Part shown: in pieces, positions 933-32,808 of the stretch
Layout: the number at the start of each line of letters is the position of its first letter
How positions within the stretch are numbered: the stretch's first letter is position 1
Assembly (NCBI GenBank): GCA_963802505.1
Contig: CAWDJB010000008.1
Span: forward strand, 134,112 to 198,111
Origin: an uncultured Acidimicrobiales bacterium
GTDB taxonomy: Bacteria; Actinomycetota; Acidimicrobiia; Acidimicrobiales; DATKAS01
DNA length: 64,000 bases
Reading direction: 5' to 3'
Notes under the pieces: model-generated
What the model saw: the letters and a program-made list of their open reading frames with translations, nothing else
What the model was told of the DNA's origin: nothing
Database searches by the model: none
Made by a program: the position numbers and the translations under genes

Positions 933-2557
933 TGGCGACTGCACTGCGTGACCGTCCGGCGTGGAAGGCACTCGAGCAGCACCACGCCGAGATCGGCGGG
1001 ACGCACCTCCGCGACCTGTTCGCCAGCGATGCGGGCCGCGGTGAGCGCCTGACGGCCGAGGCCGTCGGGCTCTACCTCGACTACTCGAAGAACCGCGTCA
1101 CCGACGAGACGATGCGCCTGCTCCTCCAGCTCGCCGAGGAGTCGGGGCTCCGCGAGCACACCGAGAAGATGTTCACCGGCGAGCGGATCAACGTGTCCGA
1201 GAACCGCTCAGTGCTGCACGTCGCGCTCCGAATGCCGAAGGGCACGTCGCTCGTCGTGGACGGTGTCGACGTGGTCGCAGAGGTGCACGAGGTCCTCGAC
1301 CGGATGAGCGCGTTCTCCGACCGGGTGCGGTCAGGCGAGTGGAAAGGCCACACCGGCAAGCCCATCAAGCACGTCGTGAACGTCGGCATCGGTGGCTCCG
1401 ACCTCGGGCCGGTCATGGCCTACGAGGCACTGCGCCACTACTCCAAGCGCGACATGACCTTCCGCTTCGTCTCGAACGTCGACTCGACCGACTTCGCCGA
1501 AGCGACACGCGACTTGGCCGCGGACGAGACGCTCTTCATCATCTGCTCGAAGACGTTCACGACACTCGAGACCCTGACCAACGCGCACACCGCACGGGCA
1601 TGGGCGCTCGAGCAGCTCGGCGACGAGTCCGCCATCGCCAAGCACTTCGTCGCGGTCTCCACGAACGCGGAGAAGGTCGCCGAGTTCGGCATCGACACCG
1701 ACAACATGTTCGGCTTCTGGGACTGGGTCGGCGGCCGGTACTCGATGGACTCCGCGATCGGCCTCTCGACGATGCTCGCCGTCGGACCCGATGGGTTCAA
1801 GGAGATGCTCGCGGGCTTCCACGACATGGACACGCACTTCCGGACGGCGCCGCTCGCGCAGAACCTGCCCGTGATCATGGGTCTGCTCGCGCTCTGGTAC
1901 GGCGACTTCTTCGACGCGCAGACCGTCGGCGTGATGCCCTACGAGCAGTACTTGAAGCGCTTCCCCGCGTACCTGCAGCAGCTCACGATGGAGTCGAACG
2001 GCAAGCACGTCACGATCGAGGGGACGCACGTCGACTACCAGACCGGCGCGGTCTTCTGGGGCGAGCCCGGCACCAACGGGCAGCACAGCTTCTACCAGCT
2101 GATCCATCAGGGCACGAAGCTCATCCCTGTCGACCTCATCGGGTTCGGCAAGACGCTCAACCCGATCGGCGACCACCACGACATCCTGTCCTCGAACGTC
2201 TTCGCGCAGGCCGAGGCGCTCGGATTCGGGAAGACCGAGCAGGAGGTGCGCGCGGAAGGTACGGCCGAGGCCGTGGTGCCGCACCGCGTGATGGAAGGCA
2301 ACCGACCGACCAACGTCATCCTCGCCGAGGTGCTCACACCGCACGTGCTCGGCGCGCTCGTCGCCCTCTACGAACACAGCGTGTTCACCCAGGGCGTCAT
2401 CTGGAGCATCGATTCGTTCGACCAGTGGGGGGTCGAGCTCGGCAAGGTGCTCGCGGCCCGGATCATCCCGGAGCTCGAGAGCGCGCAAGAGCCTCCTCTG
2501 AACCACGACTCGTCGACGAACGCGCTGATCCGGAAGTACCGCGCGCTCAAGCGCTAG
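932..2557 (+). CDS. pgi: Glucose-6-phosphate isomerase
   Basis: Lies within ORF 881..2557. The ATG at 932 overlaps the tal stop (TGATG). PGI-like blocks include [24 protein letters not shown] and [12 protein letters not shown]. Confidence 0.92.
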
Positions 2558-9274: not shown

Positions 9275-9294
9275 CCGCCAACCGGCTAAGCCGC
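9267..9294. terminator. Imperfect hairpin spanning both stop codons of convergent genes
   Basis: GCGGCTAGCCG-CCAAC-CGGCTAAGCCGC forms about 11 bp with one bulge. It sits between the MoaD-like gene (+) and the FAD oxidoreductase (-). There is no U-tract. Confidence 0.4.
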
Positions 9295-10749
9295 GAGTCC
9301 CAACACCTCGAGCAGGTCTGGCCTCCCGGGCCCTAGCACCGGCTCGGGCGGCCGGCTCTCTCTGTCGTTCCACACGGCGAGCACACGGGCCCCGATGTCG
9401 GGATCGCTGATCAGCGTGTCGGGCGGCACCAGCAGGTTGAACGTGCGCACGAACGCGCGGAACACCTCGGGATCGGTGCGCATCGCAGGAGCGAGGCCCT
9501 CGCGCAGCACCGACCTCATGAACGCTCGGGGATCGTCGGGGTCGTCGATGTCTTCGCCCGCGAGCAGCGCGGCCGCGATGCGCCGGGATTCGGCGTCCTG
9601 GACGACCGACGACCGGTACCACGGCAGCAGGTGCTCCTCGGTGAGCGCGTGCAAGGCCAAGGCTTGCGCGGTCAGGTCGTCCGCGTGGTCGCGGACGACG
9701 CCCGCGAGCAGATGCGCGTGCCAGAACCCGGTGGAGCACCCCCGCCCGTACAGCGGGTTCGTGCAGACGCTCGCATCGCCGATCGCATGCACGCCGAGAG
9801 CCAGCGGCTTGCCGTCGACGACGAACGTACGCAGTCGGTTGAGCAGCCCCGCCATCAGGTGGACGCCCGTGATCGGCCGTGAGATCGCCGGATCCACCCA
9901 TGCCTGCGTCGCGGGGAGCAACGTGGCCGTCGCGTCGAACGCCTCGAGCGTGCTCAGCGCGGTGCGCAGGACGCCGTCTTCGGTCGGTGTCGCGAGCGTG
10001 ATCGAGAACGTGCCGTTGTCGCCTTGGAAGATCGCGTACTTCAGGTAGCCGAGGTCGCCGCCGATCGGCCCGTCGCGCGGCGGCGGCTCCGCTCCGGGCA
10101 AGAGCTCGTAGAAGCGGGAGTAGTAGACGATGCCGGTGTCCTCGACTTCCTCGGGGACCGGATCTGTCCCGATCGCCGCGAGCCAGTCGGGGAGCGTCGA
10201 CCGCCGGCCGCCCGCGACGATCGTGAGGTCGGCAGGGATCGTCCCCGCGCTCGTCACGACTCCGGTGACGACAGGCACTCCGTCGGCACCTGGCTCCGCG
10301 CGCAGCCCCTCGACGGCGACACCGTCGCGGATCGTGCAGCGGTCGCTTGCGAGCACCGAGCGCCTGAGCACCCACTCGAACGTGGTGCGCCGGCACGCGA
10401 GCATCACGAGCTCGTCGTCGTTCGCGCGTGGCGACCGGTCGGTCATGGTCGGCGGCAGGTTCTCGGTCATCCGGATCTCGGTCGCGCCGGCGTCGAGCAG
10501 ATCGGCCAGCACGTCGGGATACGAGCCGCGGAGCAGGCCGTAGAGCCGGGCGAGGAAGGCATGGCTGTGCCGGACCTGGGGGGCGCCCCGGCGGTCCCAC
10601 TCGAAGGCCGACATGGGATCGGGAGGCAATGGCGTCGCGTCTCGCTCGACCAGCGTGACCTCGTGACCGTCGCGACTCAGCGCGAGGGCGGCCCCCAAAC
10701 CCGACACCCCGGCACCCACCACCACGATCTTCTTGCTCTCGAACCCCAC
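9286..10749 (-). CDS. FAD-dependent oxidoreductase (Rossmann GxGxxG N-terminus); substrate unknown
   Basis: 487 aa with a GTG start. The N-terminus KKIVVVGAGVSGLGAALALSRDGHEVTLVERD is a dinucleotide-binding motif. Confidence 0.75.
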   Translation of the reverse strand: MGFESKKIVVVGAGVSGLGAALALSRDGHEVTLVERDATPLPPDPMSAFEWDRRGAPQVRHSHAFLARLYGLLRGSYPDVLADLLDAGATEIRMTENLPPTMTDRSPRANDDELVMLACRRTTFEWVLRRSVLASDRCTIRDGVAVEGLRAEPGADGVPVVTGVVTSAGTIPADLTIVAGGRRSTLPDWLAAIGTDPVPEEVEDTGIVYYSRFYELLPGAEPPPRDGPIGGDLGYLKYAIFQGDNGTFSITLATPTEDGVLRTALSTLEAFDATATLLPATQAWVDPAISRPITGVHLMAGLLNRLRTFVVDGKPLALGVHAIGDASVCTNPLYGRGCSTGFWHAHLLAGVVRDHADDLTAQALALHALTEEHLLPWYRSSVVQDAESRRIAAALLAGEDIDDPDDPRAFMRSVLREGLAPAMRTDPEVFRAFVRTFNLLVPPDTLISDPDIGARVLAVWNDRESRPPEPVLGPGRPDLLEVLGLAA

Positions 10750-10809
10750 GACGATTGAAGGTACATGGCCCGTGCGAGGTTGCAGGTCGGCTCCGACCGT
10801 GGTTTGCTG

Positions 10810-13667: not shown

Positions 13668-14330
13668 ATGGCCATGGGGGTCCGGCGATTCGCGCTCGTG
13701 GCAGTCGTGGGCGCTGTCGCGGCCGCATCGACGTCCTGCGCGAGCTCGGGCTTCACGTACGTGAAGAACAGCGGCGAGGGCGCGTACTTCAAGGTCCCCG
13801 AGGACTGGAAGCTCTACAAGCTCGACCCCAACGCGCTTCCTGACGATCGGCCGTTCCCCGACGGCGCTGATCAGCAGCTCGCGGACGGGCCCTGGCGGGT
13901 CGTGTTCGACAGCGACGCGAAGCCCGACGTCACCCACTTCCAGGACGACATCCCCGAGGCCGTCGTCGGCCAGGCCGAGATCAGCCCGATCGGCCAGAGC
14001 GTCAGAGATCAGGTGTCGAACGTCGACCTCCGGGCGCTCGCGCTCGACGGCACCGCTGACCCGATCGCGCTGTACGAGCAGGGCAGCACCGACATCGAGA
14101 TCGTGAAGTACGAGCAGCTCACCACCGGCGAGGGCCTCCGCGGCAACCGCATCGTCCTCAACAAGCTGGTCAACGGCAGCTACGTGACGATCGATCAGAT
14201 CGCGCTTGTCGATCCGGGCACCACTACCTTGTACCGGTTCCTCGTCAAGTGCTCATCGAAGTGCTATCTGCAGCATCGGAGCGAGATCGACACTGTGGTC
14301 GACTCGTGGCAGATCAGGAAGAAGAGCTGA
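13668..14330 (+). CDS. Hypothetical secreted lipoprotein
   Basis: 220 aa. It has a signal peptide followed by Cys (VVGAVAAASTSCASS). No recognisable catalytic motif. It lies 6 nt after the GNAT gene and 1 nt before the FtsH-like gene. Confidence 0.6.
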   Translation: MAMGVRRFALVAVVGAVAAASTSCASSGFTYVKNSGEGAYFKVPEDWKLYKLDPNALPDDRPFPDGADQQLADGPWRVVFDSDAKPDVTHFQDDIPEAVVGQAEISPIGQSVRDQVSNVDLRALALDGTADPIALYEQGSTDIEIVKYEQLTTGEGLRGNRIVLNKLVNGSYVTIDQIALVDPGTTTLYRFLVKCSSKCYLQHRSEIDTVVDSWQIRKKS

Positions 14331-14331
14331 C

Positions 14332-16797
14332 ATGAGCATCGCCTGGCCCGATCCGTCGCCGCCTCCCCCTCCGCCTCCCCCGCCCGTCCACGTGCCGGTG
14401 CCAGCGGTCGAGGTGAAGCACACCCGCAAGAAGCTGGCGTTCTGGGACCGCTCGAAGATCCTGATCTTCATCGCGTTGCTGTTCGCGTTCCTCGTGTGGA
14501 ACGACATGGCGGACAACCCGATCATCCCGTTCCGCGACGCGCTGCGCGAGACGGCCCGGGCGAAGTGGTGGTTCTTCCTCGCCTTCGTGCTCGAGCTCGT
14601 TCGCCAGATCCACTACGTGATCTGCGAGCACTCCGCTCGTTACAACATGTTCTGGGAAGACAAGGTGTTCGGCCGCTGGAACAAGCGCGCCGACCGCATG
14701 AACCCCTGGACGCGCTTCCGCATCGCGCGGGCCTTCAAGTTCGTGTTCGTCAGCATCGTGCTCTGCGTGTTCTTCGCCGGCCGGTGGGACGTCACCCCGG
14801 TCGAGGCGTTCTTCCAGGCGCCGTCACGGATCTACGACATCCTCTTCTCGACCGCGCAGGGTCTTCCGTTCATCTTCCAGATCGTCATGCTGCTCGGCCT
14901 CGCCGTGGGGCAGTTCGTCGCGATCTTCTGGTTCCTCTCGCGCGGTGGCGTCGACACCTACTACCCCGACGACATCAAGACCCGGTTCTCGGATGTGTGG
15001 GGCCAGGATCCGGTGCTCGATCGTGTCAAAGAGAACGTCATGTTCCTCGAGGACCCCGAGAAGATCGAGAGCAAGGGCGGCCACGTGCCTTCGGGCATCT
15101 TGCTGTGGGGGCCTCCCGGCACCGGCAAGACGCTGATGGCGGAAGCGGTTGCCGGTGAGACCGGCCGGCCGTTCGTCTTCGTCGACCCGGGCGCGTTCAC
15201 GAACATGTTCTTCGGGGTCGGCATCCTCAAGGTGAAGTCGCTCTTCCGCAAGCTGCGCAAGCTCGCCCTGCGCTACGGCGGCGTGATCGTGTTCTTCGAC
15301 GAGGCCGACACCCTCGGCAACCGCGGTCAGCTCGCCCAGGGCGGCGGCGGCTGGAGCGACAGCAACCAGCTTCCGTTCAACACGTGCTGCAACTCGCTCG
15401 ACTACGTGTCCGAGCACACGCGGGCCGAGCTGTGGCGGTGGAACGCTCCGCTCGAGCCTGTCGCACCCGAGGTCGGGGGAATCCGCGGCTTCGTCATGGG
15501 CGCGGGGATGGGCGGCGGCGGCGGAGGCATGGGCACGCTGCAGGCCCTGTTGACCGAGCTGTCCGGCCTCAAGAAGCCGCGAGGGTTCTTCAACCGCTTC
15601 GTGCGCCGCCTGCTGTCGATGAAGCCGAAGCCCCCGCCGAAGTACCGCATCCTCGTGATGATGGCGACGAACATGCCGCAGGCTCTCGACGAGGCGCTGC
15701 TGCGCCCCGGCCGCATCGACCGCATTTACAAGGTCGGCTACCCCTACCTCGAAGGACGCACGCGCACCTTCCAGGGCTACCTCGACAGGGTGAAGCACTC
15801 GCTGACGCCCGAGGAAGTCGAGAAGCTCGCGCTGATGTCGCCGTACGCGACGGGCGCCACGATCAAGGACGTCGTGAACGAGGCCCTCATCGTCGCGATC
15901 CGCGACGGTCGCGACACGGTCGAGTACGCGGACGCGCTGAAGGCGAAGCACCTGAAGAACAACGGCCCCGCCGACGACTGGAAGTACGCCGACTGGGAGC
16001 GCCACGCGGTCGCCATCCACGAGGCCTCGCACGCCGTTGCGATGTACCGCCTGCAGAAGCGCGAGATGATCGACGTCGCGACGATCGAACGCCGCGGTGG
16101 CACCGGAGGCTTCGTGGCTCCCGTGCCCCTCGAAGAGCAGTTCGTCGACTGGAAGTCGGGCAAGGAGCGCGACGTCATCACGTTCGTCGCGTCGCTCGCC
16201 GGTGAGCGCCTCTTCTTCGAGGGCGACAACTCCGCGGGCGTGGGTGGCGACCTGCAGAACGCGACCGCGATCGTCGCTGGGATGGAGGCCTACGCAGGGA
16301 TGGGCTCGACGGTCGGATCGCGCGGCTACATGCCCGGCGCGGCGTCGGCCACGGGCAGCGTGATCACGGGCGAGGACCGCAACTTCCTCGAGACCGAGCT
16401 CGGCCGTCGGGTCGAGACGAGGCTGAAAGAGCTGCTCGAGCGCGCGCACGGCATGCTCGTCGAGGATCGCCGGTACGTGTTGGCGATCGCCCACGCCCTC
16501 GAGACGCACAAGACGATCACGGGCGAGGACATCGTCGCGATCTTCGAAGGCGGACGCGGTCCGACCCTCGACGGCGGCGTGTATCACACCGACGACTTCA
16601 TGATCTCCTACGAGGCGTACCACCTGAGTGTGGTCGCCGCGCACCAGAGCCAGGGCTCGCCCGAGAAGCCGCTGCCGGTCTTCCAAGCCGTCACGCAGAG
16701 CATCCTCGTGCCGATCGGGAACGGCAACGGAAACGGCAACGGGGCCAAGACCGAGGTCGAGCACTCCGAGCCGCTTCCTCCCCCGCAGGAGCGATGA
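14332..16797 (+). CDS. Atypical FtsH-family membrane AAA+ zinc metalloprotease
   Basis: The ATG at 14332 lies within ORF 14206..16797. Motifs present are Walker A GPPGTGKT, pore loop MFFG, Walker B FFDEAD, ATN...LLRPGRIDR, zinc site HEASH and a downstream GGDLQNAT. The N-terminus has a poly-Pro run and four hydrophobic helices. Confidence 0.85.
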   Translation: MSIAWPDPSPPPPPPPPPVHVPVPAVEVKHTRKKLAFWDRSKILIFIALLFAFLVWNDMADNPIIPFRDALRETARAKWWFFLAFVLELVRQIHYVICEHSARYNMFWEDKVFGRWNKRADRMNPWTRFRIARAFKFVFVSIVLCVFFAGRWDVTPVEAFFQAPSRIYDILFSTAQGLPFIFQIVMLLGLAVGQFVAIFWFLSRGGVDTYYPDDIKTRFSDVWGQDPVLDRVKENVMFLEDPEKIESKGGHVPSGILLWGPPGTGKTLMAEAVAGETGRPFVFVDPGAFTNMFFGVGILKVKSLFRKLRKLALRYGGVIVFFDEADTLGNRGQLAQGGGGWSDSNQLPFNTCCNSLDYVSEHTRAELWRWNAPLEPVAPEVGGIRGFVMGAGMGGGGGGMGTLQALLTELSGLKKPRGFFNRFVRRLLSMKPKPPPKYRILVMMATNMPQALDEALLRPGRIDRIYKVGYPYLEGRTRTFQGYLDRVKHSLTPEEVEKLALMSPYATGATIKDVVNEALIVAIRDGRDTVEYADALKAKHLKNNGPADDWKYADWERHAVAIHEASHAVAMYRLQKREMIDVATIERRGGTGGFVAPVPLEEQFVDWKSGKERDVITFVASLAGERLFFEGDNSAGVGGDLQNATAIVAGMEAYAGMGSTVGSRGYMPGAASATGSVITGEDRNFLETELGRRVETRLKELLERAHGMLVEDRRYVLAIAHALETHKTITGEDIVAIFEGGRGPTLDGGVYHTDDFMISYEAYHLSVVAAHQSQGSPEKPLPVFQAVTQSILVPIGNGNGNGNGAKTEVEHSEPLPPPQER

Positions 16798-26019: not shown

Positions 26020-27354
26020 GTGGCCGAACGCCTGGTGATCATCGGGGGAGATGCGGGCGGGATGGCCGCGGTCTCGCAGGTGCGCCGCACGCGTCCCGAC
26101 ATGGAGATCGTCGCGTTCGAGCGTGGCCACTACACGTCGTACTCGGCATGCGGCATCCCCTACCTCGTCGGCGGCGAGATCGCGGAGCTCGGCGATCTCG
26201 TCGCACGGTCGCCGCAGGAGTTCCGCGACGGGTTCCGCGTCGACGTCAGGATGCGCCACGAGGTCATCGGGCTCGACGTCGACGCCCGCGAGGTCGAGGT
26301 ACGCGCGATCGAGCAGGACCGCACCTTCCGCCTCGGGTTCGACCAAGCGCTGGTCGCGACGGGAGGCGTTCCGATCCGTCCTGACCTCCCCGGCATCGAC
26401 GACGACCACGTGCACGGCGTGCAGACGCTCGACGACGCCAAGCACCTCCTGAACCACGTCAATTCGGAGTCGTTGAAGCACGTCGTCGTCGTGGGCGGCG
26501 GCTATATCGGGCTCGAGATGGCCGAGGCCTTCGCGCGTCGTGGTGCGAAGGTCACGCTCCTGGAGGCGGGATCTCAGGTGATGCGCACGCTCGACCCCGA
26601 CATGGCCACGCTGGTCGCTGCCGCGCTGCGGCGGCACGGGGTCGACGTTCGCCTCGGCGAGGGCGCGAAGGCGTTCGAGCCGAAGCGCGTCGTCACCGAC
26701 CAAGGCGCAATCGAAGCCGACCTCGTCGTCCTCGGCATCGGCGTGCAGCCCAACTCGAGCCTTGCGAAGGACGCCGGTCTCGACGTCGGAGTGCGCGAAG
26801 CCGTGAGCGTGAGCCGCAGGCAGGAGACCTCGGTCAGCGGCGTCTGGGCAGCGGGCGACTGCTGCGAGAGCACGCACCTCGTGAGCGGGAGGAAGGTCCA
26901 CATCCCTCTCGGAACGATCGCCAACAAGCAGTCGCGTGTCGCCGGGATCAACATCGGAGGTGGGTACTCGACGTTCAAGGGCGTAGTCGGCACTGCGATC
27001 ACACGTGTGTGCGACACCGAGATCGCGCGTACCGGTCTGTCGGAAGCCGAGGCGACCGAGGCCGGGTTCGCGTTCACGAGCACCGTCATCGAGGGGAGCA
27101 CGCGGGCGGGCTATCTCCCCGGGAAGAAGAACACGACGGTGAAGCTCGTCACCGAGCAGCGCACCGGCCGGCTGCTCGGCGGGCAGATCGTCGGCGAGGA
27201 GGGTGCGGCGAAGCGCATCGACGTGCTCGCAACCGCGTTGACCGCACGCATGAACGTCGAGGAGATGATCGACCTCGATCTCGGCTACGCGCCGCCGTTC
27301 TCGCCCATCTGGGACCCGGTGCTCGTGGCCGCCCGCGTGGCGAGCCGCACGTGA
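26020..27354 (+). CDS. Pyridine nucleotide-disulfide oxidoreductase (CoA-disulfide reductase / NADH oxidase family)
   Basis: 444 aa. It has FAD motif VIIGGDAGG, a single redox Cys in SYSACGIPY and NAD motif VVVGGGYIGLEMAE. Confidence 0.8.
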   Translation: MAERLVIIGGDAGGMAAVSQVRRTRPDMEIVAFERGHYTSYSACGIPYLVGGEIAELGDLVARSPQEFRDGFRVDVRMRHEVIGLDVDAREVEVRAIEQDRTFRLGFDQALVATGGVPIRPDLPGIDDDHVHGVQTLDDAKHLLNHVNSESLKHVVVVGGGYIGLEMAEAFARRGAKVTLLEAGSQVMRTLDPDMATLVAAALRRHGVDVRLGEGAKAFEPKRVVTDQGAIEADLVVLGIGVQPNSSLAKDAGLDVGVREAVSVSRRQETSVSGVWAAGDCCESTHLVSGRKVHIPLGTIANKQSRVAGINIGGGYSTFKGVVGTAITRVCDTEIARTGLSEAEATEAGFAFTSTVIEGSTRAGYLPGKKNTTVKLVTEQRTGRLLGGQIVGEEGAAKRIDVLATALTARMNVEEMIDLDLGYAPPFSPIWDPVLVAARVASRT

Positions 27355-28559: not shown

Positions 28560-29447
28560 TCAGTCTCCGTGTTGGTCGCGCAAGTACCGCTCGAGCTCCT
28601 CGACGAGGTCGTCGACGTTGTCGTCGGCGGTCAGGTCTTCGTCGTCCTCGTCGTCGTCACCGAAAGGCTGGCCGCTGTCGACCATGTCCTCGAGCCGGCG
28701 CACGTAGCCGGTGAGGTCGTCGTCGTTCGTCACGACCTCGTCGACCTCGCGCTCGTACGCGGCAGCCGCGATCTCGAGGGCGGTCGTCGGGACCATGAGG
28801 CCCAGCACGTCGCCGACGCGCTCGACGAGCGCCAGCGCCGCCTTGGGCGAGGGCGCCCCCTGCACGTAGGCGGGTACGGCGGCCCACAGCGAGAGCGAGG
28901 GGATGCCTGCGGTGGTGCACGCGTCGTGCAGCGCTCCCACGATGCCCGTCGGTCCCTCGTAGCGGGACCGCTGCAGGCCGTATTGATCGATGAGCGTGGG
29001 GTCGGCCGCCGTGCCGATGACCGAGACGGGGCGGGAGTGAGGCACCTCGGCGAGAAGTGCGCCGAGGGTGATCAGCATCCGAGCGTTGATCTCGGTGGCG
29101 ACTCCGATCATCTCGGCGCAGAACGTTCGCCACTTCAGCTGCGGCTCGGTGCCGAGCACCAGCACGACGTCGAGGTCAGCACCGAGCACCGAGGACGCCG
29201 AGAACTCGTTCGACGGCCACACGATCTCGCGGTGCACGCCGTCGACGAGCCGCACTTGCGGTCGCGTCGCGCTGAAGTCGTAGAAATCTTCCGCGTCGAG
29301 CGTGGCGAATGGTCGCGTCGCCCACACGTCAGCGAGGTGCCGGCCGGCGCTGGAGGCCGCCTCGCCCGCATCGTTCCAACCCGCGAACGCCGCGATGACG
29401 ACGGGCGTACGCAGACGGGGTCGCGACGACCACCGCACGTGCTCCAT
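28560..29447 (-). CDS. PAC2 (proteasome assembly chaperone 2-like) family protein
   Basis: 295 aa. ...VVIAAFAGWNDAGEAAS...FYDFSATRPQV...GTEPQLKWRTF...YEGPTGIVGAL... followed by an acidic C-terminal tail, as in actinobacterial PAC2 proteins. Confidence 0.85.
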   Translation of the reverse strand: MEHVRWSSRPRLRTPVVIAAFAGWNDAGEAASSAGRHLADVWATRPFATLDAEDFYDFSATRPQVRLVDGVHREIVWPSNEFSASSVLGADLDVVLVLGTEPQLKWRTFCAEMIGVATEINARMLITLGALLAEVPHSRPVSVIGTAADPTLIDQYGLQRSRYEGPTGIVGALHDACTTAGIPSLSLWAAVPAYVQGAPSPKAALALVERVGDVLGLMVPTTALEIAAAAYEREVDEVVTNDDDLTGYVRRLEDMVDSGQPFGDDDEDDEDLTADDNVDDLVEELERYLRDQHGD

Positions 29448-29481
29448 GGCCGATCACCCTACCGGCCGTTATCGTCAACTC

Positions 29482-30558
29482 ATGATCGTCGAAGAGCTCT
29501 CCGTCGCGGCCGAAGACGTCGCGGCCCGCACCGGTTGGGAGGCCAAACCAGAGGGGCTTTGCAAGGGTGACGTCTGCGTACCGCTGCCCGGCGGGACGCC
29601 GCCCGACGGGCGGCTTTCGGTCGAGATGCTGGCCGAACGCTTGCGCATGCCGCTCGTGCACGACGAGGAACATCACCTGTGGGCGCTCGGGCCCGAGAGC
29701 GGCGGTCGCGCGCTCACGACCGCCGTCGTGCCGGACATCACGCTGCCCGACCGCAACGGTGCACCGTTCGCGTTGTCGTCGCTTGGCGGCCAGAAGGTGT
29801 TGCTCGTCGCGTGGGCGAGCTGGTGAGGGTGCCGCACGAGCCTGCCCGGGTGGCAGGCACTGCGCGCTGAGCTCTTCCCGAAGCTCGAAGTCGTCACCGT
29901 CGCGCTCGACGTCGACCCGACGTTCGCGTACCCGTTCATCGACATCGCTGCGCCTGACCATCCTTCGCTCATCGATTCGCGCCACCTGCTCGACGAGGTG
30001 CTCGGCTTTTGGAACGTCCCGATGGCCGTGTGGATCGACGAGGACGGCGTGCTGGTGCGACCGCCCGAGGGTGCATCGGTAGAAGACTCGCCGCTGCGCA
30101 CGATGGACATCTCCGGCTTCCCCGACGGCATCCGCGAAGTCATGAAAGAGGTGCAGAAGATCCCTGGCGATCCTGTCGCGTACCGCGCCGCGATCGTCGA
30201 CTGGGCGAACAACGGTGCCGCGAGTCGCTACGCGCTCACTCCCGACGAGGTGATCGAGCGATCACAGCCGCGGCCGATGGACCACGCCAGCGCGGCCGCG
30301 TGCTTCGAGCTCGGGCAGGAGCTCTGGCGGCGCGGGTTGAAGGATGCCGCCGTGCCCTGGTGGCGCGAGGCGCATCGCCTGCATCCGGAGAACTGGACGT
30401 ACAAGCGCCAGGCCTGGACGTTCGTCACGACCGAGCCGGGCCAACCGCCCGACCTCCTGCAACCGCCGAACGACGTCTACGAGGGCAGCTGGTACGCCGA
30501 TGTCGTTCGTCTCGGAGGCGGCGAGAAGTACGTCAATGCGCCCGACCTCGAGGCTTAG
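29482..30558 (+). CDS. ResA/TlpA-like thioredoxin-fold protein with in-frame UGA (putative selenocysteine) in a W-A-S-W-U-G-C motif
   Basis: ORFs 29302..29826 and 29998..30558 share one frame and are separated by a single stop, TGA 29824-29826. The 57 intervening codons are stop-free and GC3-rich. The TGA replaces the first Cys of the expected CxxC box (GQKVLLVAWASW*GCRTSLPGW). The thioredoxin fold continues downstream (VPMAVWIDEDGVLV). The start is ATG 29482 or ATG 29446. Confidence 0.7.
29831..29867 (+). other. SECIS-like stem-loop immediately downstream of the in-frame UGA
   Basis: The upper stem is GCCUGCC / GGCAGGC (7 bp, 29840-46 with 29852-58) with apical loop CGGGU. The lower stem can extend, with bulges, to 29831/29867. 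The loop G residues lie about 25 nt from the U of UGA. Confidence 0.45.
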
Positions 30559-31472
30559 ACGCCGGGGTCTCGTTCGCTCGCGCGGGCGAGGTCGGCCGCG
30601 CCGGCGCTGAGGTAGCCGCCCTGCGCGCGCATCTGCTCGCCCCAGGGGCCCAACAGCGCGAAGAGCTCGTCGGCATCGTCGCCGATCGCGTCGATCGTCG
30701 GCGCCATCGAGAGGTCCGTCGAGATCTCGATGCTCTCGCGCAGCTCGCGTCCGCCATCGGTGAAGCCCGTACCGTCGGCATCGACGAGGTCGCGTGCCTG
30801 GAGGCGCTCGACCGCCGCGTCGAGCTCCTCGTCGCTCCACGCACGCGTGCGGATGTAGCTGCGCATCGGCAGGCCGATGAAGAGTTCGGTGAGGAGGCCG
30901 ATCTCGGTCGCGTCGAGACCGAGCGCCACCCATGCAGCGGTGTGTGAGTCGCCACGGAACTCGCGGAGGTAGTCGCCGAGCCGCCAGAAGTCGCCCATCG
31001 GTGAGCCGGGAAGGCCGAGGCTGAGCAAGCCCGCGTACAACGGTCGGCCCTCGGGGCGCAGCGGATCAGTGGCGCGGCCCAGGATCTCGGTCGCGCGATC
31101 GAGGCCTTCGGGCCCAGGCCCGAGGATGCGCTCGAGCTGAGCGACCGCGCCTTCGGTGCGGGCGGTTGCGATCGTCTTCGCGTCGGTGAGCGTCCAGCCG
31201 TACGAGACGCTCGGCACGACCGCGGCGGGGTTGAACACGGCGAACGCCGAGGCGACGAGCTCGCCGGGCACCTGCCCGAGGCAGGACCCGCGGCTCGTGA
31301 AGTACGCGGGGCCGTCGGGCAGCTGCACGCCGCCGGCCTTGCCGGGGCTCGGTCCGAAGCCGAGCGCCGCGTAACGCTCATGGCACTCGGGAGCGAAGTA
31401 GACCGACCCGACGATCGGCTCGAGATAGCCCGCGAGCTGGCGGGCGGTCGTGTGGAGCCTCGCGTCGCTCAT
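30555..31472 (-). CDS. Hypothetical protein (SCO6745-like family, from memory), paralog 1
   Basis: ORF trimmed to the ATG at 31472, which overlaps the upstream paralog's stop (ATGA). The blocks VYFAPE, YFTSRGSCLGQVPGE, FAVFNP, GLLSLGLPGSPMGDFWR, REFRGDSH and MRSYIRTRAWS are shared with the neighbouring gene. Confidence 0.6.
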   Translation of the reverse strand: MSDARLHTTARQLAGYLEPIVGSVYFAPECHERYAALGFGPSPGKAGGVQLPDGPAYFTSRGSCLGQVPGELVASAFAVFNPAAVVPSVSYGWTLTDAKTIATARTEGAVAQLERILGPGPEGLDRATEILGRATDPLRPEGRPLYAGLLSLGLPGSPMGDFWRLGDYLREFRGDSHTAAWVALGLDATEIGLLTELFIGLPMRSYIRTRAWSDEELDAAVERLQARDLVDADGTGFTDGGRELRESIEISTDLSMAPTIDAIGDDADELFALLGPWGEQMRAQGGYLSAGAADLARASERDPGV

Positions 31473-32322
31473 GGCCGCGTCATCAGCGTCGGGTCGACGG
31501 GGTATGCCCCGCCGGCGACGAGCTTGTCTTTCATGGGCGTGAGAATCATGCACAGCTCCTCGAAGTCATCGGCCAGCGTCTTGACGATCGATCGTTCCTG
31601 CAGGTCGGTGCACAGCTCGATCTCAGCGCGGAGCTCTTCGCCCTGCTCGGTGAACTCGTCGCCGTCCATGAGCCCGCGGTCGCGCAGGTCGTCGACGGCG
31701 GCATCGATCTGCTCTTCGGACCATCCACGCGTGCGTACGTAGGACCGCAGCGGGAGGTGCCACCACAGCTCCGTGCTGAGGTTCGCCTGGATCGGGTCGA
31801 GGCCGTGCGACACCCAAGCGATGATGTGCGAGTCGCCGCGGTGCTCGCGCACGAGATCGGCGGCCCGCCAGAAGTCGCCCATCGGCGTGCCCGGGAAGCC
31901 GAGAGACAGCAGACCGGAGTACAGGCCGCGTCCTTCGCCCGTCGCTTCCAATCCCGCGCGGGTCAAGACCTCGGTGGCGCGGGCGAGCCCGTCGGGCGCC
32001 GGACCGAGAAGGCGGGTCAGCCCGTCGACGGCGCCCTTCTCGCGGGCGGCCAGGATCGTGTCGCGGTCGGTCTTCGACCATGCCTCGTCCACTGCGGGGA
32101 TCACCGTCACTGGGTTGAACACACCGAACGCCGCGGTGATGACCTCCCCCGGCACCTGACCCATGCACGCGCCACGGCTCGCGAAGTACGGCGGACCGAA
32201 CTCGGGCAAGCCGAGCTCCTTGTACGCGGCGTGTGCCTCCGGCAGGAAGTAGACGCTCGCCGCGACCACCTCGACCAGGTCGCGGAGCTTTCGGGCTTTC
32301 GCCCGTATTTCTTCGTCGCGCA
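31469..32322 (-). CDS. Hypothetical protein (SCO6745-like family), paralog 2
   Basis: ORF trimmed to the ATG at 32322 (MRDEEIRAKARKLRDL...). It is collinear with paralog 1 along its full length, at roughly half identity by eye. Confidence 0.6.
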
Positions 32323-32376
32323 TGCTTCCCCCTGAGCACGTAGGTCGCGGGAGTGTAGGCGTAAGTTTCCAGCGCG

Positions 32377-32808
32377 ATGACCGTGTCGGTGAGCGTGTGC
32401 GAGGTCGTGAATCCCGAGATCGTCGAGGCGATCGCGCGGTTGCTTCCGCAGCTCTCACGCTCCGCCCCGCCGCCCACGGTCGAACAGCTCGAGGACATCG
32501 CGACGTCACCAGCGAGTCATCTGCTCGTCGCACGAGTCGACGACGAGATCGTCGGCGCACTCACGCTCGTCGTGTTCCGCATCCCGACCGGCATGCGCGC
32601 GTGGATCGAAGACGTCGTCGTCGACGAGGCCGCGCGCGGACATGGAGTCGGCGAGGCGCTGAACCGCGAGGCCCTGCGTCTCGCGAAGGAGCGCGGTGCC
32701 ATCACGGTCGACCTCACATCGCGTCCTTCGCGTGAGGCGGCCAACCGGTTGTACCAGCGGCTGGGGTTCACCCAGCGCGAGACGAACGTCTACCGCTACG
32801 ACCTCTGA
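32377..32808 (+). CDS. GNAT-family N-acetyltransferase
   Basis: 143 aa. The acetyl-CoA binding block is VDEAARGHGVGEALNREALRLAKERG. Confidence 0.8.
   Translation: MTVSVSVCEVVNPEIVEAIARLLPQLSRSAPPPTVEQLEDIATSPASHLLVARVDDEIVGALTLVVFRIPTGMRAWIEDVVVDEAARGHGVGEALNREALRLAKERGAITVDLTSRPSREAANRLYQRLGFTQRETNVYRYDL

Follow-up and report, generated by a model that had tools for sequence, protein, structure and literature searches.

When a TGA codon interrupts an otherwise open thioredoxin-like reading frame, does it mark the end of one gene, the breakage of another, or a codon for an amino acid? The question is raised by positions 29482..30558 (plus strand) of a 64,000-nucleotide (nt) stretch of contig CAWDJB010000008.1, here called the window, from an uncultured Acidimicrobiales bacterium, where an open reading frame (ORF) list divides the sequence into two calls, 29302..29826 and 29998..30558, both in the same frame. 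We conclude that 29482..30558 is very probably one intact selenoprotein gene of the already described 'ResA-like WAxxUGC' family, in which UGA 29824..29826 (plus strand) is read as selenocysteine (Sec115) at the position that aligns to the first Cys of C-G-C in homologues. The complete coding sequence (CDS) runs from ATG 29482 to a TAG stop at 30556-30558 and specifies 358 residues.

One reading frame across an internal UGA

Translation of the 359-codon frame 29482..30558 yields one internal stop, TGA 29824-29826, in the context ...KVLLVAWASW*GCRTSLPGWQ..., that is, within a redox motif that translation and the family alignment place at 29812..29832 on the plus strand (W-A-S-W-U-G-C, Trp111 to Cys117). 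The 57 codons that bridge the two ORF calls (29827-29997) are free of stops, and third-position GC content (GC3) is high both just upstream (0.92) and just downstream (0.84) of the TGA, which gives the sequence a coding appearance on either side. At the other end of the gene, ATG 29482 lines up with the family N-terminus in homologue alignments (MI..., with I2 nearly invariant). With Cys placed at the TGA, the product matched NF041054.1 (WAxxUGC_long), the NCBIfam equivalog model "ResA-like WAxxUGC motif-containing protein", at 502.1 bits (E = 9.5e-151; curated cutoff, 300 bits), and the alignment paired residues 1-353 of 358 with model positions 1-351 of 354. The original prediction, made from the letters of the window alone, had held that one gene was cut in two by the ORF track across 57 stop-free, GC3-rich codons; the single frame, the GC3 values and the full-length match to NF041054 bear this out. 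It had also mentioned an NCBI label, 'ResA-like WAxxUGC motif', and that label is real, being the name of NF041054, which the protein matches at 502 bits.

The same pair of ORF calls could instead be taken at face value, as two proteins, a short N-terminal one that stops at the TGA and an independent one downstream, and C-terminal fragments are in fact stored as 'proteins' in databases (P0001, P0067 and P0104). These fragments, however, start at differing, arbitrary internal start codons, and in 117 homologues one polypeptide covers the full length, with Cys at position 115. Further, conservation as coding sequence extends through the 57 codons that separate the calls, the thioredoxin fold straddles the TGA (strand 105-111 before it, helix 116-134 after it), and the two halves were never observed as separate conserved genes, NF041054 covering both. 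Two separate genes are thus hardly credible here, and one continuous gene is the reading that we carry forward.

A single base separates TGC from TGA, and this favors two other accounts of the codon. In the first, the gene is really of the ordinary Cys type and the TGA is an artifact of sequencing or assembly. Against this, the TGA is also present in an independent JGI metagenome assembly (L166; 98.3% identity over 1077 nt), in a Logan contig with 91% protein identity to the window copy (L001) and in every other relative from unrelated projects, which leaves an error with a negligible probability, the smallest that we assign to any alternative. The public gene calls for the L166 copy, 723-1259 and 1455-1835 (both minus strand), yield products of 178 and 126 residues and are an example of selenoprotein mis-annotation in practice. 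The second account, a recent loss of function, is best judged against the wider family.

Conservation of the UGA codon among relatives

A search of protein databases returned 2660 relatives, of which the best 120 were examined. Among these, 117 were full-length and all carried Cys at the Sec115 column (W-A-S-W-C-G-C), while the other three (P0001, P0067 and P0104) were C-terminal fragments beginning just past that column; their contigs, L001-L003 (91%, 69% and 68% identical), all read TGA in frame at this codon position. A scan of GTDB with one genome per species gave 588 relatives, and in the best 80 (L004-L083), all of them Acidimicrobiia, Acidimicrobiales or Ilumatobacteraceae metagenome-assembled genomes (MAGs) with 55-66% identity, the Sec115 codon was TGA in 80/80. 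Finally, metagenomes were scanned with a query alignment made up solely of Cys forms; of the 80 contigs obtained (L086-L165), 68 had TGA and 12 had Cys. Pooling the 80 genomes, the 68 contigs, L001-L003 and the window produced 145 distinct Sec-type sequences; at the DNA level, the codon is TGA in 145/145 of these and TGC or TGT in the 12 Cys forms. The TGA therefore does fall, as had been claimed, at the first Cys position of the TlpA/ResA motif, where it aligns with Cys in 117 full-length homologues, and the alternation between UGA and Cys among orthologues that had been proposed as a check is found (145 TGA versus 12 TGC/TGT and 117 Cys proteins).

This comparison also bears on the second single-base account, in which a recent TGC-to-TGA change killed a Cys-type oxidoreductase gene and left its downstream part to decay as a nonsense pseudogene. 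It is true that gene callers break the gene into two pieces. Yet the TGA is common to 145 distinct orthologous sequences, down to ~55% protein identity, and 145/145 Sec forms show no further stop for 199 codons or more past it (230 codons examined). Residues 3' of the TGA are conserved, with NWTYKRQAW invariant or nearly so across the family, and the match to NF041054 runs end to end. Neutral decay past the stop had been named as what would overturn the selenoprotein reading, and the opposite was found. A dead gene is accordingly an extremely improbable explanation, on a level with two separate genes, and we retain the reading of an intact gene with a Sec codon.

Although the Sec form prevails at the DNA level, 117/120 of the best protein-database matches are Cys forms. 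Sec forms are under-represented in protein databases because gene callers cut them into lower-scoring fragments.

A probable bacterial SECIS hairpin within the codons of a conserved peptide

A hairpin with the anatomy of a bacterial selenocysteine insertion sequence (SECIS) lies at 29840..29858 (plus strand), with 5' arm GCCUGCC at 29840-29846, apical loop CGGGU at 29847-29851 and 3' arm GGCAGGC at 29852-29858. Its 7-bp stem has a minimum free energy (MFE) of -12.7 kcal/mol, and it is encoded by the codons for Ser-Leu-Pro-Gly-Trp-Gln-Ala. Published criteria for bacterial SECIS (bSECIS) elements call for a 3-9-nt loop on a 4-16-bp stem, at least one G among the two leading loop nucleotides, usually with G or U next, a UGA-to-loop distance of 16-37 nt and an MFE no higher than -7.5 kcal/mol (PMC13188914, Fig. 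2). The hairpin lies within these limits on all four counts, with a loop of 5 nt, a stem of 6-7 bp, the loop sequence CG[G/U]GU, a spacing of 20 nt (29827-29846) and -12.7 kcal/mol. The bacterial SECIS geometry asserted in the original prediction thus agrees with the published spacing, and the upper 7-bp stem and CGGGU loop that it described stand; the extendable lower stem that it placed from 5 nt after the UGA does not, since it is not conserved. That long lower stem is seen only in the window's own minimum-energy fold and was dropped by RNAalifold, which predicted no conserved structure beyond a 6-bp stem and its 5-nt loop, first with 84 Sec forms and again with 145. The whole 71-nt fold around the UGA was no better than that of shuffled sequence (z = -0.36).

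Across the 145 Sec forms, the six core pairs are 95-100% paired, the MFE is -7.5 kcal/mol or lower in 143/145, and the loops are CGUGU (72), CGGGU (63), AGGUU (7), GGUCU (2) and AGGAU (1). The hairpin motif is also specific to its place: 150 of its 152 occurrences in 1.6 Mb of fetched loci directly follow the TGA of a WAxxUGC family gene. The comparison yields the SECIS consensus CUGCC-CG[G/U]GU-GGCAG, 14 nt after the UGA. Changes within stem pairs include C-G to U-G (6) and on to U-A (5), as well as a double swap of G-C to C-G in L039. Covariation of the hairpin among orthologues had been set as a further check, and compensatory changes do occur at three pairs (84 sequences), with 0/500 column shuffles reaching the observed values; the hairpin is, in addition, specific to Sec forms.

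The codons that build the stem tell more. In Sec forms, the hairpin Leu is CTG in 134 sequences, TTG in 11 and CTC never, whereas CTG makes up 39% and CTC 45% of the Leu codons in the rest of these genes. The hairpin Pro is CCC (134), CCA (7) or CCG (2), against 45% CCG outside the hairpin; for the loop codon, 142/145 have GTG (72), GGG (63) or GGT (7); and the hairpin Gln is CAG in 139 and CAA in five, all five of which are paired with TTG. Adjacent invariant residues vary freely in their synonymous codons, with four used for Gly116, six for Arg118 and six for the next Leu, and with TGC (99) and TGT (46) for Cys117. Judged from these alignments, such synonymous-site freezing is stronger evidence for the predicted RNA element than covariation, because the stem consists of Leu-Pro-x-Trp-Gln codons.

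Cys forms behave differently, in that a stable hairpin is kept in 2/12 and lost in 10/12. Their codons are relaxed (CTC, CCG and CAA), and the peptide itself often drifts (LPLWQ, NPIWA, GVLWA and GPIWS). Sec forms have Gly or Val almost exclusively at the loop residue x of L-P-x-W-Q, and Cys forms have Leu, Ile or His there, so that at 29842-29856 of the window and at homologous positions the RNA element seems to restrict the protein sequence. Closely related Sec and Cys forms exist: three Cys forms (L086-L088) and two Sec forms (L089-L090) are all 78-89% identical to the Cys reference P0021, the Cys forms having LPLWQ with the hairpin-breaking codons CTC/CCG/CAA and the Sec forms LPVWQ with CTG/CCC/CAG. 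Such relatives could serve for studying Sec/Cys switching.

Proposed decoding of the UGA

If the hairpin acts as other bacterial SECIS elements do, SelB carrying Sec-tRNA(Sec) would bind 29840-29858 while UGA 29824-29826 occupies the ribosomal A site and, with the CGGGU apical loop starting 20 nt past the UGA, would insert selenocysteine in place of termination. We infer this scheme from the anatomy of the hairpin together with established bacterial Sec biology.

Several points weigh against the selenoprotein reading. First, selA, selB, selD and tRNA-Sec were not found in the 64-kb window or in the flanks of related loci. Specifically, ARAGORN called no tRNA gene in the window and no tRNA-Sec in L001-L083, and tblastn with Escherichia coli queries gave no match to SelA, SelB or SelD in the window or in ~1.2 Mb of related loci (the flanks of L001-L083); the original prediction had already noted a window without selA, selB, selC or selD, and the ARAGORN and tblastn searches agree. 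The Sec machinery is not linked to the selenoprotein gene; that the source genome has it is an assumption. Second, direct covariation in the hairpin is modest (five compensatory cells among 84 sequences), because the hairpin is largely invariant and built from codons of the conserved peptide L-P-x-W-Q. Third, a scan of the whole window against Rfam at gathering thresholds left the hairpin unmatched, which is a weak point, as Rfam has few bacterial SECIS models. Fourth, a literature search found no experimental evidence of selenium in any member of the WAxxUGC family, and no experimental study of it; nothing was found under the name 'WAxxUGC', the family appearing under older names. Finally, the structure model considered below is that of a 60%-identical Cys homologue, P0003, rather than of the window protein, and the catalytic chemistry would follow from fold and motif only.

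The first of these points bears on an alternative in which the UGA is read through as something other than Sec, be it by near-cognate Trp or Cys, by SelB-delivered Cys from an unusual tRNA or by general reassignment of the codon. In its favor are that no Sec machinery was located in the window or in the flanks of related loci and that, in some bacteria, Sec codons are recoded to Cys by unusual tRNAs. On the other side, more ORFs in the window end normally in TGA than in any other stop (26/41), and UGA is thus not generally reassigned; the hairpin fits the SelB-type bSECIS model on four of four criteria; and NCBI curators and the literature class the family as a selenoprotein. Moreover, a sister order in the same class, the Actinomarinales (class Acidimicrobiia), has the complete machinery, with selA/B/C/D in 84/84 complete genomes (bioRxiv 10.64898/2026.04.03.716425). 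Read-through as another amino acid is, on this balance, quite unlikely, though it is the least improbable of the alternatives considered here, and incorporation of selenocysteine at position 115 is the reading that we prefer.

Three over-long tRNAs (93-102 nt) were called by ARAGORN among related loci, at L008 15535-15636, L017 4199-4291 and L058 19031-19126 (Pro-tgg, Asp-atc and Arg-tcg, respectively). None has a UCA anticodon, and they may be false positives or contain introns. In the window, five further same-frame TGA junctions were considered as other selenoprotein candidates and set aside; they are ordinary gene ends before the next gene, and none has a redox motif.

Consequences for annotation and for the family

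Publications and curation already cover the family, its UGC motif and its standing as a selenoprotein, and there is no new kind of biology here. For annotation, the consequence is that the locus should be recorded as a single selenoprotein of 358 residues, with 29824-29826 marked as a translation exception, rather than as a pseudogene or a pair of hypothetical ORFs. Many Acidimicrobiia MAGs and metagenome contigs, in which the gene is routinely split, need the same change. Beyond the cited sources, our comparison adds the dominance of the Sec form in the sampled genomes and metagenomes and a SECIS written into a conserved peptide, whose amino acids it appears to constrain. Whether these two observations extend, jointly, to a Sec form that is the normal state in Acidimicrobiia and related soil and freshwater Actinomycetota and to a SECIS RNA that dictates amino acids of the peptide is a matter on which we are evenly divided. 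If the Sec form is normal, Sec decoding would be widespread and largely unreported in Acidimicrobiales, much as in Actinomarinales, where it was not reported until 2026. The comparative Sec/Cys data and the SECIS consensus offer a starting point for studying the function of the WAxxUGC family.

Domain architecture

The protein has a three-part layout. Alignment conservation delimits an N-terminal domain (approximately residues 1-75; 29482..29706, plus strand) with the nearly invariant pattern T17-G18-W19...P23.G25.C27....C32-V33-P34, including Cys27 (29560-29562, plus strand) and Cys32 (29575-29577, plus strand). This domain had no relative in Pfam, among NCBIfam domains or in PDB sequences, and in the P0003 model it is formed of beta-hairpins and helices at high confidence. 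It is followed by a thioredoxin-fold domain of the ResA/TlpA type (approximately residues 78-200; 29713..30081, plus strand), which is supported by Pfam, by a profile search of the PDB and by Foldseek. Specifically, Pfam gave marginal matches to AhpC-TSA (31.2 bits) and Redoxin (29.4 bits) at residues 82-193, and ResA, TlpA and DsbE were matched by the profile at positions 78-200. The last part is a C-terminal helical domain with its core at 30292..30417 (plus strand), comprising a TPR-like motif (residues 271-308) and the stretch N304-W-T-Y-K-R-Q-A-W312. There, TPR_2 and TPR_14 (Pfam) match weakly at residues 271-307, the profile matches consensus TPR proteins at positions 274-308 as a single TPR motif, and six of the nine residues from N304 to W312 are invariant, with the other three at 90% or more (family alignments A1 and A4).

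Columns W111, C115, G116 and C117 are invariant in 118 sequences. The original prediction had regarded the U-G-C spacing, the N-terminal domain and the C-terminal extension as unusual features of this gene; they are instead the defining, conserved architecture of the whole family.

Predicted structure and chemistry

An AlphaFold2 model was obtained for P0003, the closest full-length Cys homologue (60% identical), from a 117-sequence alignment, with a pLDDT of 92.8 and a pTM of 0.91. Position 115 of the model sits between strand 105-111 and helix 116-134. The nearest solved structures, by Foldseek and by profile against the PDB, are ResA and TlpA, with DsbE also matched; against Bacillus subtilis ResA (2f9s), Foldseek returned E = 6.6e-9, a TM score (target) of 0.76 and a root-mean-square deviation of 1.9 A. 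CxxC oxidoreductases of the thioredoxin fold carry their attacking cysteine where the first helix begins. Sec115, at the N-terminal end of the first thioredoxin-fold helix, would by this token attack a disulfide, sulfenate or peroxide, and Cys117 would be the likely resolving partner, with the intermediate held as a selenenylsulfide.

Hydropathy revealed no transmembrane or signal segment on a 19-residue scale: the highest 19-residue Kyte-Doolittle mean is 1.18, the first such segment scores 0.46, and the N-terminus, MIVEELSVAAEDVAARTGWE, is acidic. The protein is soluble and, unlike ResA and TlpA, presumably cytoplasmic, and its activity would most likely be thiol-disulfide (or sulfenate/peroxide) exchange in the cytoplasm. 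PF00578 (AhpC/TSA) scores 31.2 bits, marginally above its gathering score of 26; the residues before Sec (V-A-W-A-S-W) have no Pro at -7 and no Thr or Ser at -3, and by inspection the peroxidatic PxxxT/SxxC(U) motif is absent. As for the other parts of the protein, Cys27 and Cys32 could form a second redox site or a structural disulfide, and recognition of a partner or substrate is the probable role of both the two-Cys domain at the N-terminus and the TPR-like domain at the C-terminus.

Relation to known systems

The family entered the literature under other names. A single UxC 'Prx-like' sequence was already present in a 2005 Sargasso Sea paper, and Zhang & Gladyshev 2008 (PMC2398784), in their Global Ocean Sampling (GOS) survey, listed a "Prx-like (UGC-containing)" family (Table 2; pfam00578, motif UGC) with 46 selenoprotein reads and 855 Cys homologues, more abundant in non-marine samples. 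Reads in the GOS Dataset S1 have the same layout, as in GWTLKPEGLCQDDTCVLVP...FSSWUGCGYELPGWQ and ...TWASWUGCRLDVPVWQ... (PMC2398784), and the family is among those in a 2026 review (PMC13188914). By motif and architecture in these supplementary sequences, the GOS family equates to NF041054, an equation made without formal cross-mapping. The window protein shares with both the W-A-x-x-U-G-C motif, the UGA at U and the three-part layout, and there is no substantive difference from the NF041054 family, although the window copy is at most ~66% identical to any species-representative genome.

With B. subtilis ResA, Bradyrhizobium TlpA and CcmG (DsbE), which are thiol-disulfide oxidoreductases that work outside the cytoplasm in the maturation of cytochrome c and cytochrome oxidase, the protein shares the thioredoxin-fold subtype and a nucleophile at the start of helix 1. 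The differences are several. Those proteins have CxxC, whereas here U-G-C (C-G-C in Cys forms) leaves one intervening residue, a spacing invariant in 118 sequences; they have an N-terminal membrane anchor or signal peptide, whereas the window protein has neither; and the window protein adds N- and C-terminal domains and has no cytochrome-maturation gene context. Its scores also fall far below the respective family cutoffs, with 35.8 versus 230 for TlpA (NF047696), 28.4 versus 170 for ResA (NF002854) and 17.2 versus 359 for DsbE. It thus shares the ResA/TlpA fold and is outside the ResA/TlpA families.

The putative RNA element can be compared with the consensus model of bacterial SECIS elements by Zhang & Gladyshev, as summarized in PMC13188914 (Fig. 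2), for which E. coli fdhF is the prototype. It lies, as in the model, inside the CDS just past the UGA, and its 5-nt loop with G at the second position followed by G/U, its upper stem, its spacing and its MFE are all in the published ranges. The E. coli sequence, however, is unrelated to the window hairpin, in which neither a bulged U nor a conserved lower stem could be detected and whose stem comes almost wholly from codons of the conserved Leu-Pro-(Gly/Val)-Trp-Gln.

A single-residue gap between Sec and Cys recurs among selenoproteins. Eukaryotic Sep15/SELENOF carries CxU, and, as Woycechowsky and Raines are said to have reported in 2003, CxC motifs act as oxidizing, isomerase-like redox centers. 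By analogy, the one-residue spacer of U-G-C predicts a strained, relatively oxidizing center. Other instances are DUF1573 (UGC), thioredoxin-like Sec.2 (UxC), the SO_0444 transporter (UxC), and the UshA-like and ferredoxin-thioredoxin reductase selenoproteins (CxU) (PMC13188914). The gap is the same in all of these; the families are unrelated, with different folds or domain contexts, and no homology is implied.

Gene neighborhood

The selenoprotein gene is monocistronic, with a divergent gene upstream, a convergent gene downstream and no operon. The upstream gene, of the PAC2 family (28560-29447, minus strand), begins 34 nt from the selenoprotein ATG and is the most often conserved neighbor (41/83 related loci), with no evident functional link. 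Downstream are two tandem, convergent HTH_67 paralogues at 30555-31553 and 31469-32560 (both minus strand; 254 and 273 bits), the first of which overlaps the selenoprotein stop by 4 nt; HTH_67 homologues adjoin the gene in 32 and 31 of the 83 loci. Other neighbors among these loci are GNAT (31) and NUDIX (22) genes. We considered the neighborhood as a clue to function and rejected it: synteny is only partial, there is no operon and no functional partner is inferable.

A pyridine nucleotide-disulfide oxidoreductase gene (26020-27354, plus strand; 444 amino acids, Pyr_redox_2 and dimerization domains) lies 2 kb upstream. It could encode a reductase partner; it is a neighbor in only 7/83 related loci. 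Farther away, an ORF of 507 codons at 9286-10809 (minus strand; GC3, 0.88) had no NCBIfam match at E <= 1e-10, and an AAA/FtsH-like protein of 869 residues, encoded at 14188-16797 (plus strand), matched FtsH in two separate stretches at 252 bits against an equivalog cutoff of 600 and may be an atypical FtsH relative.

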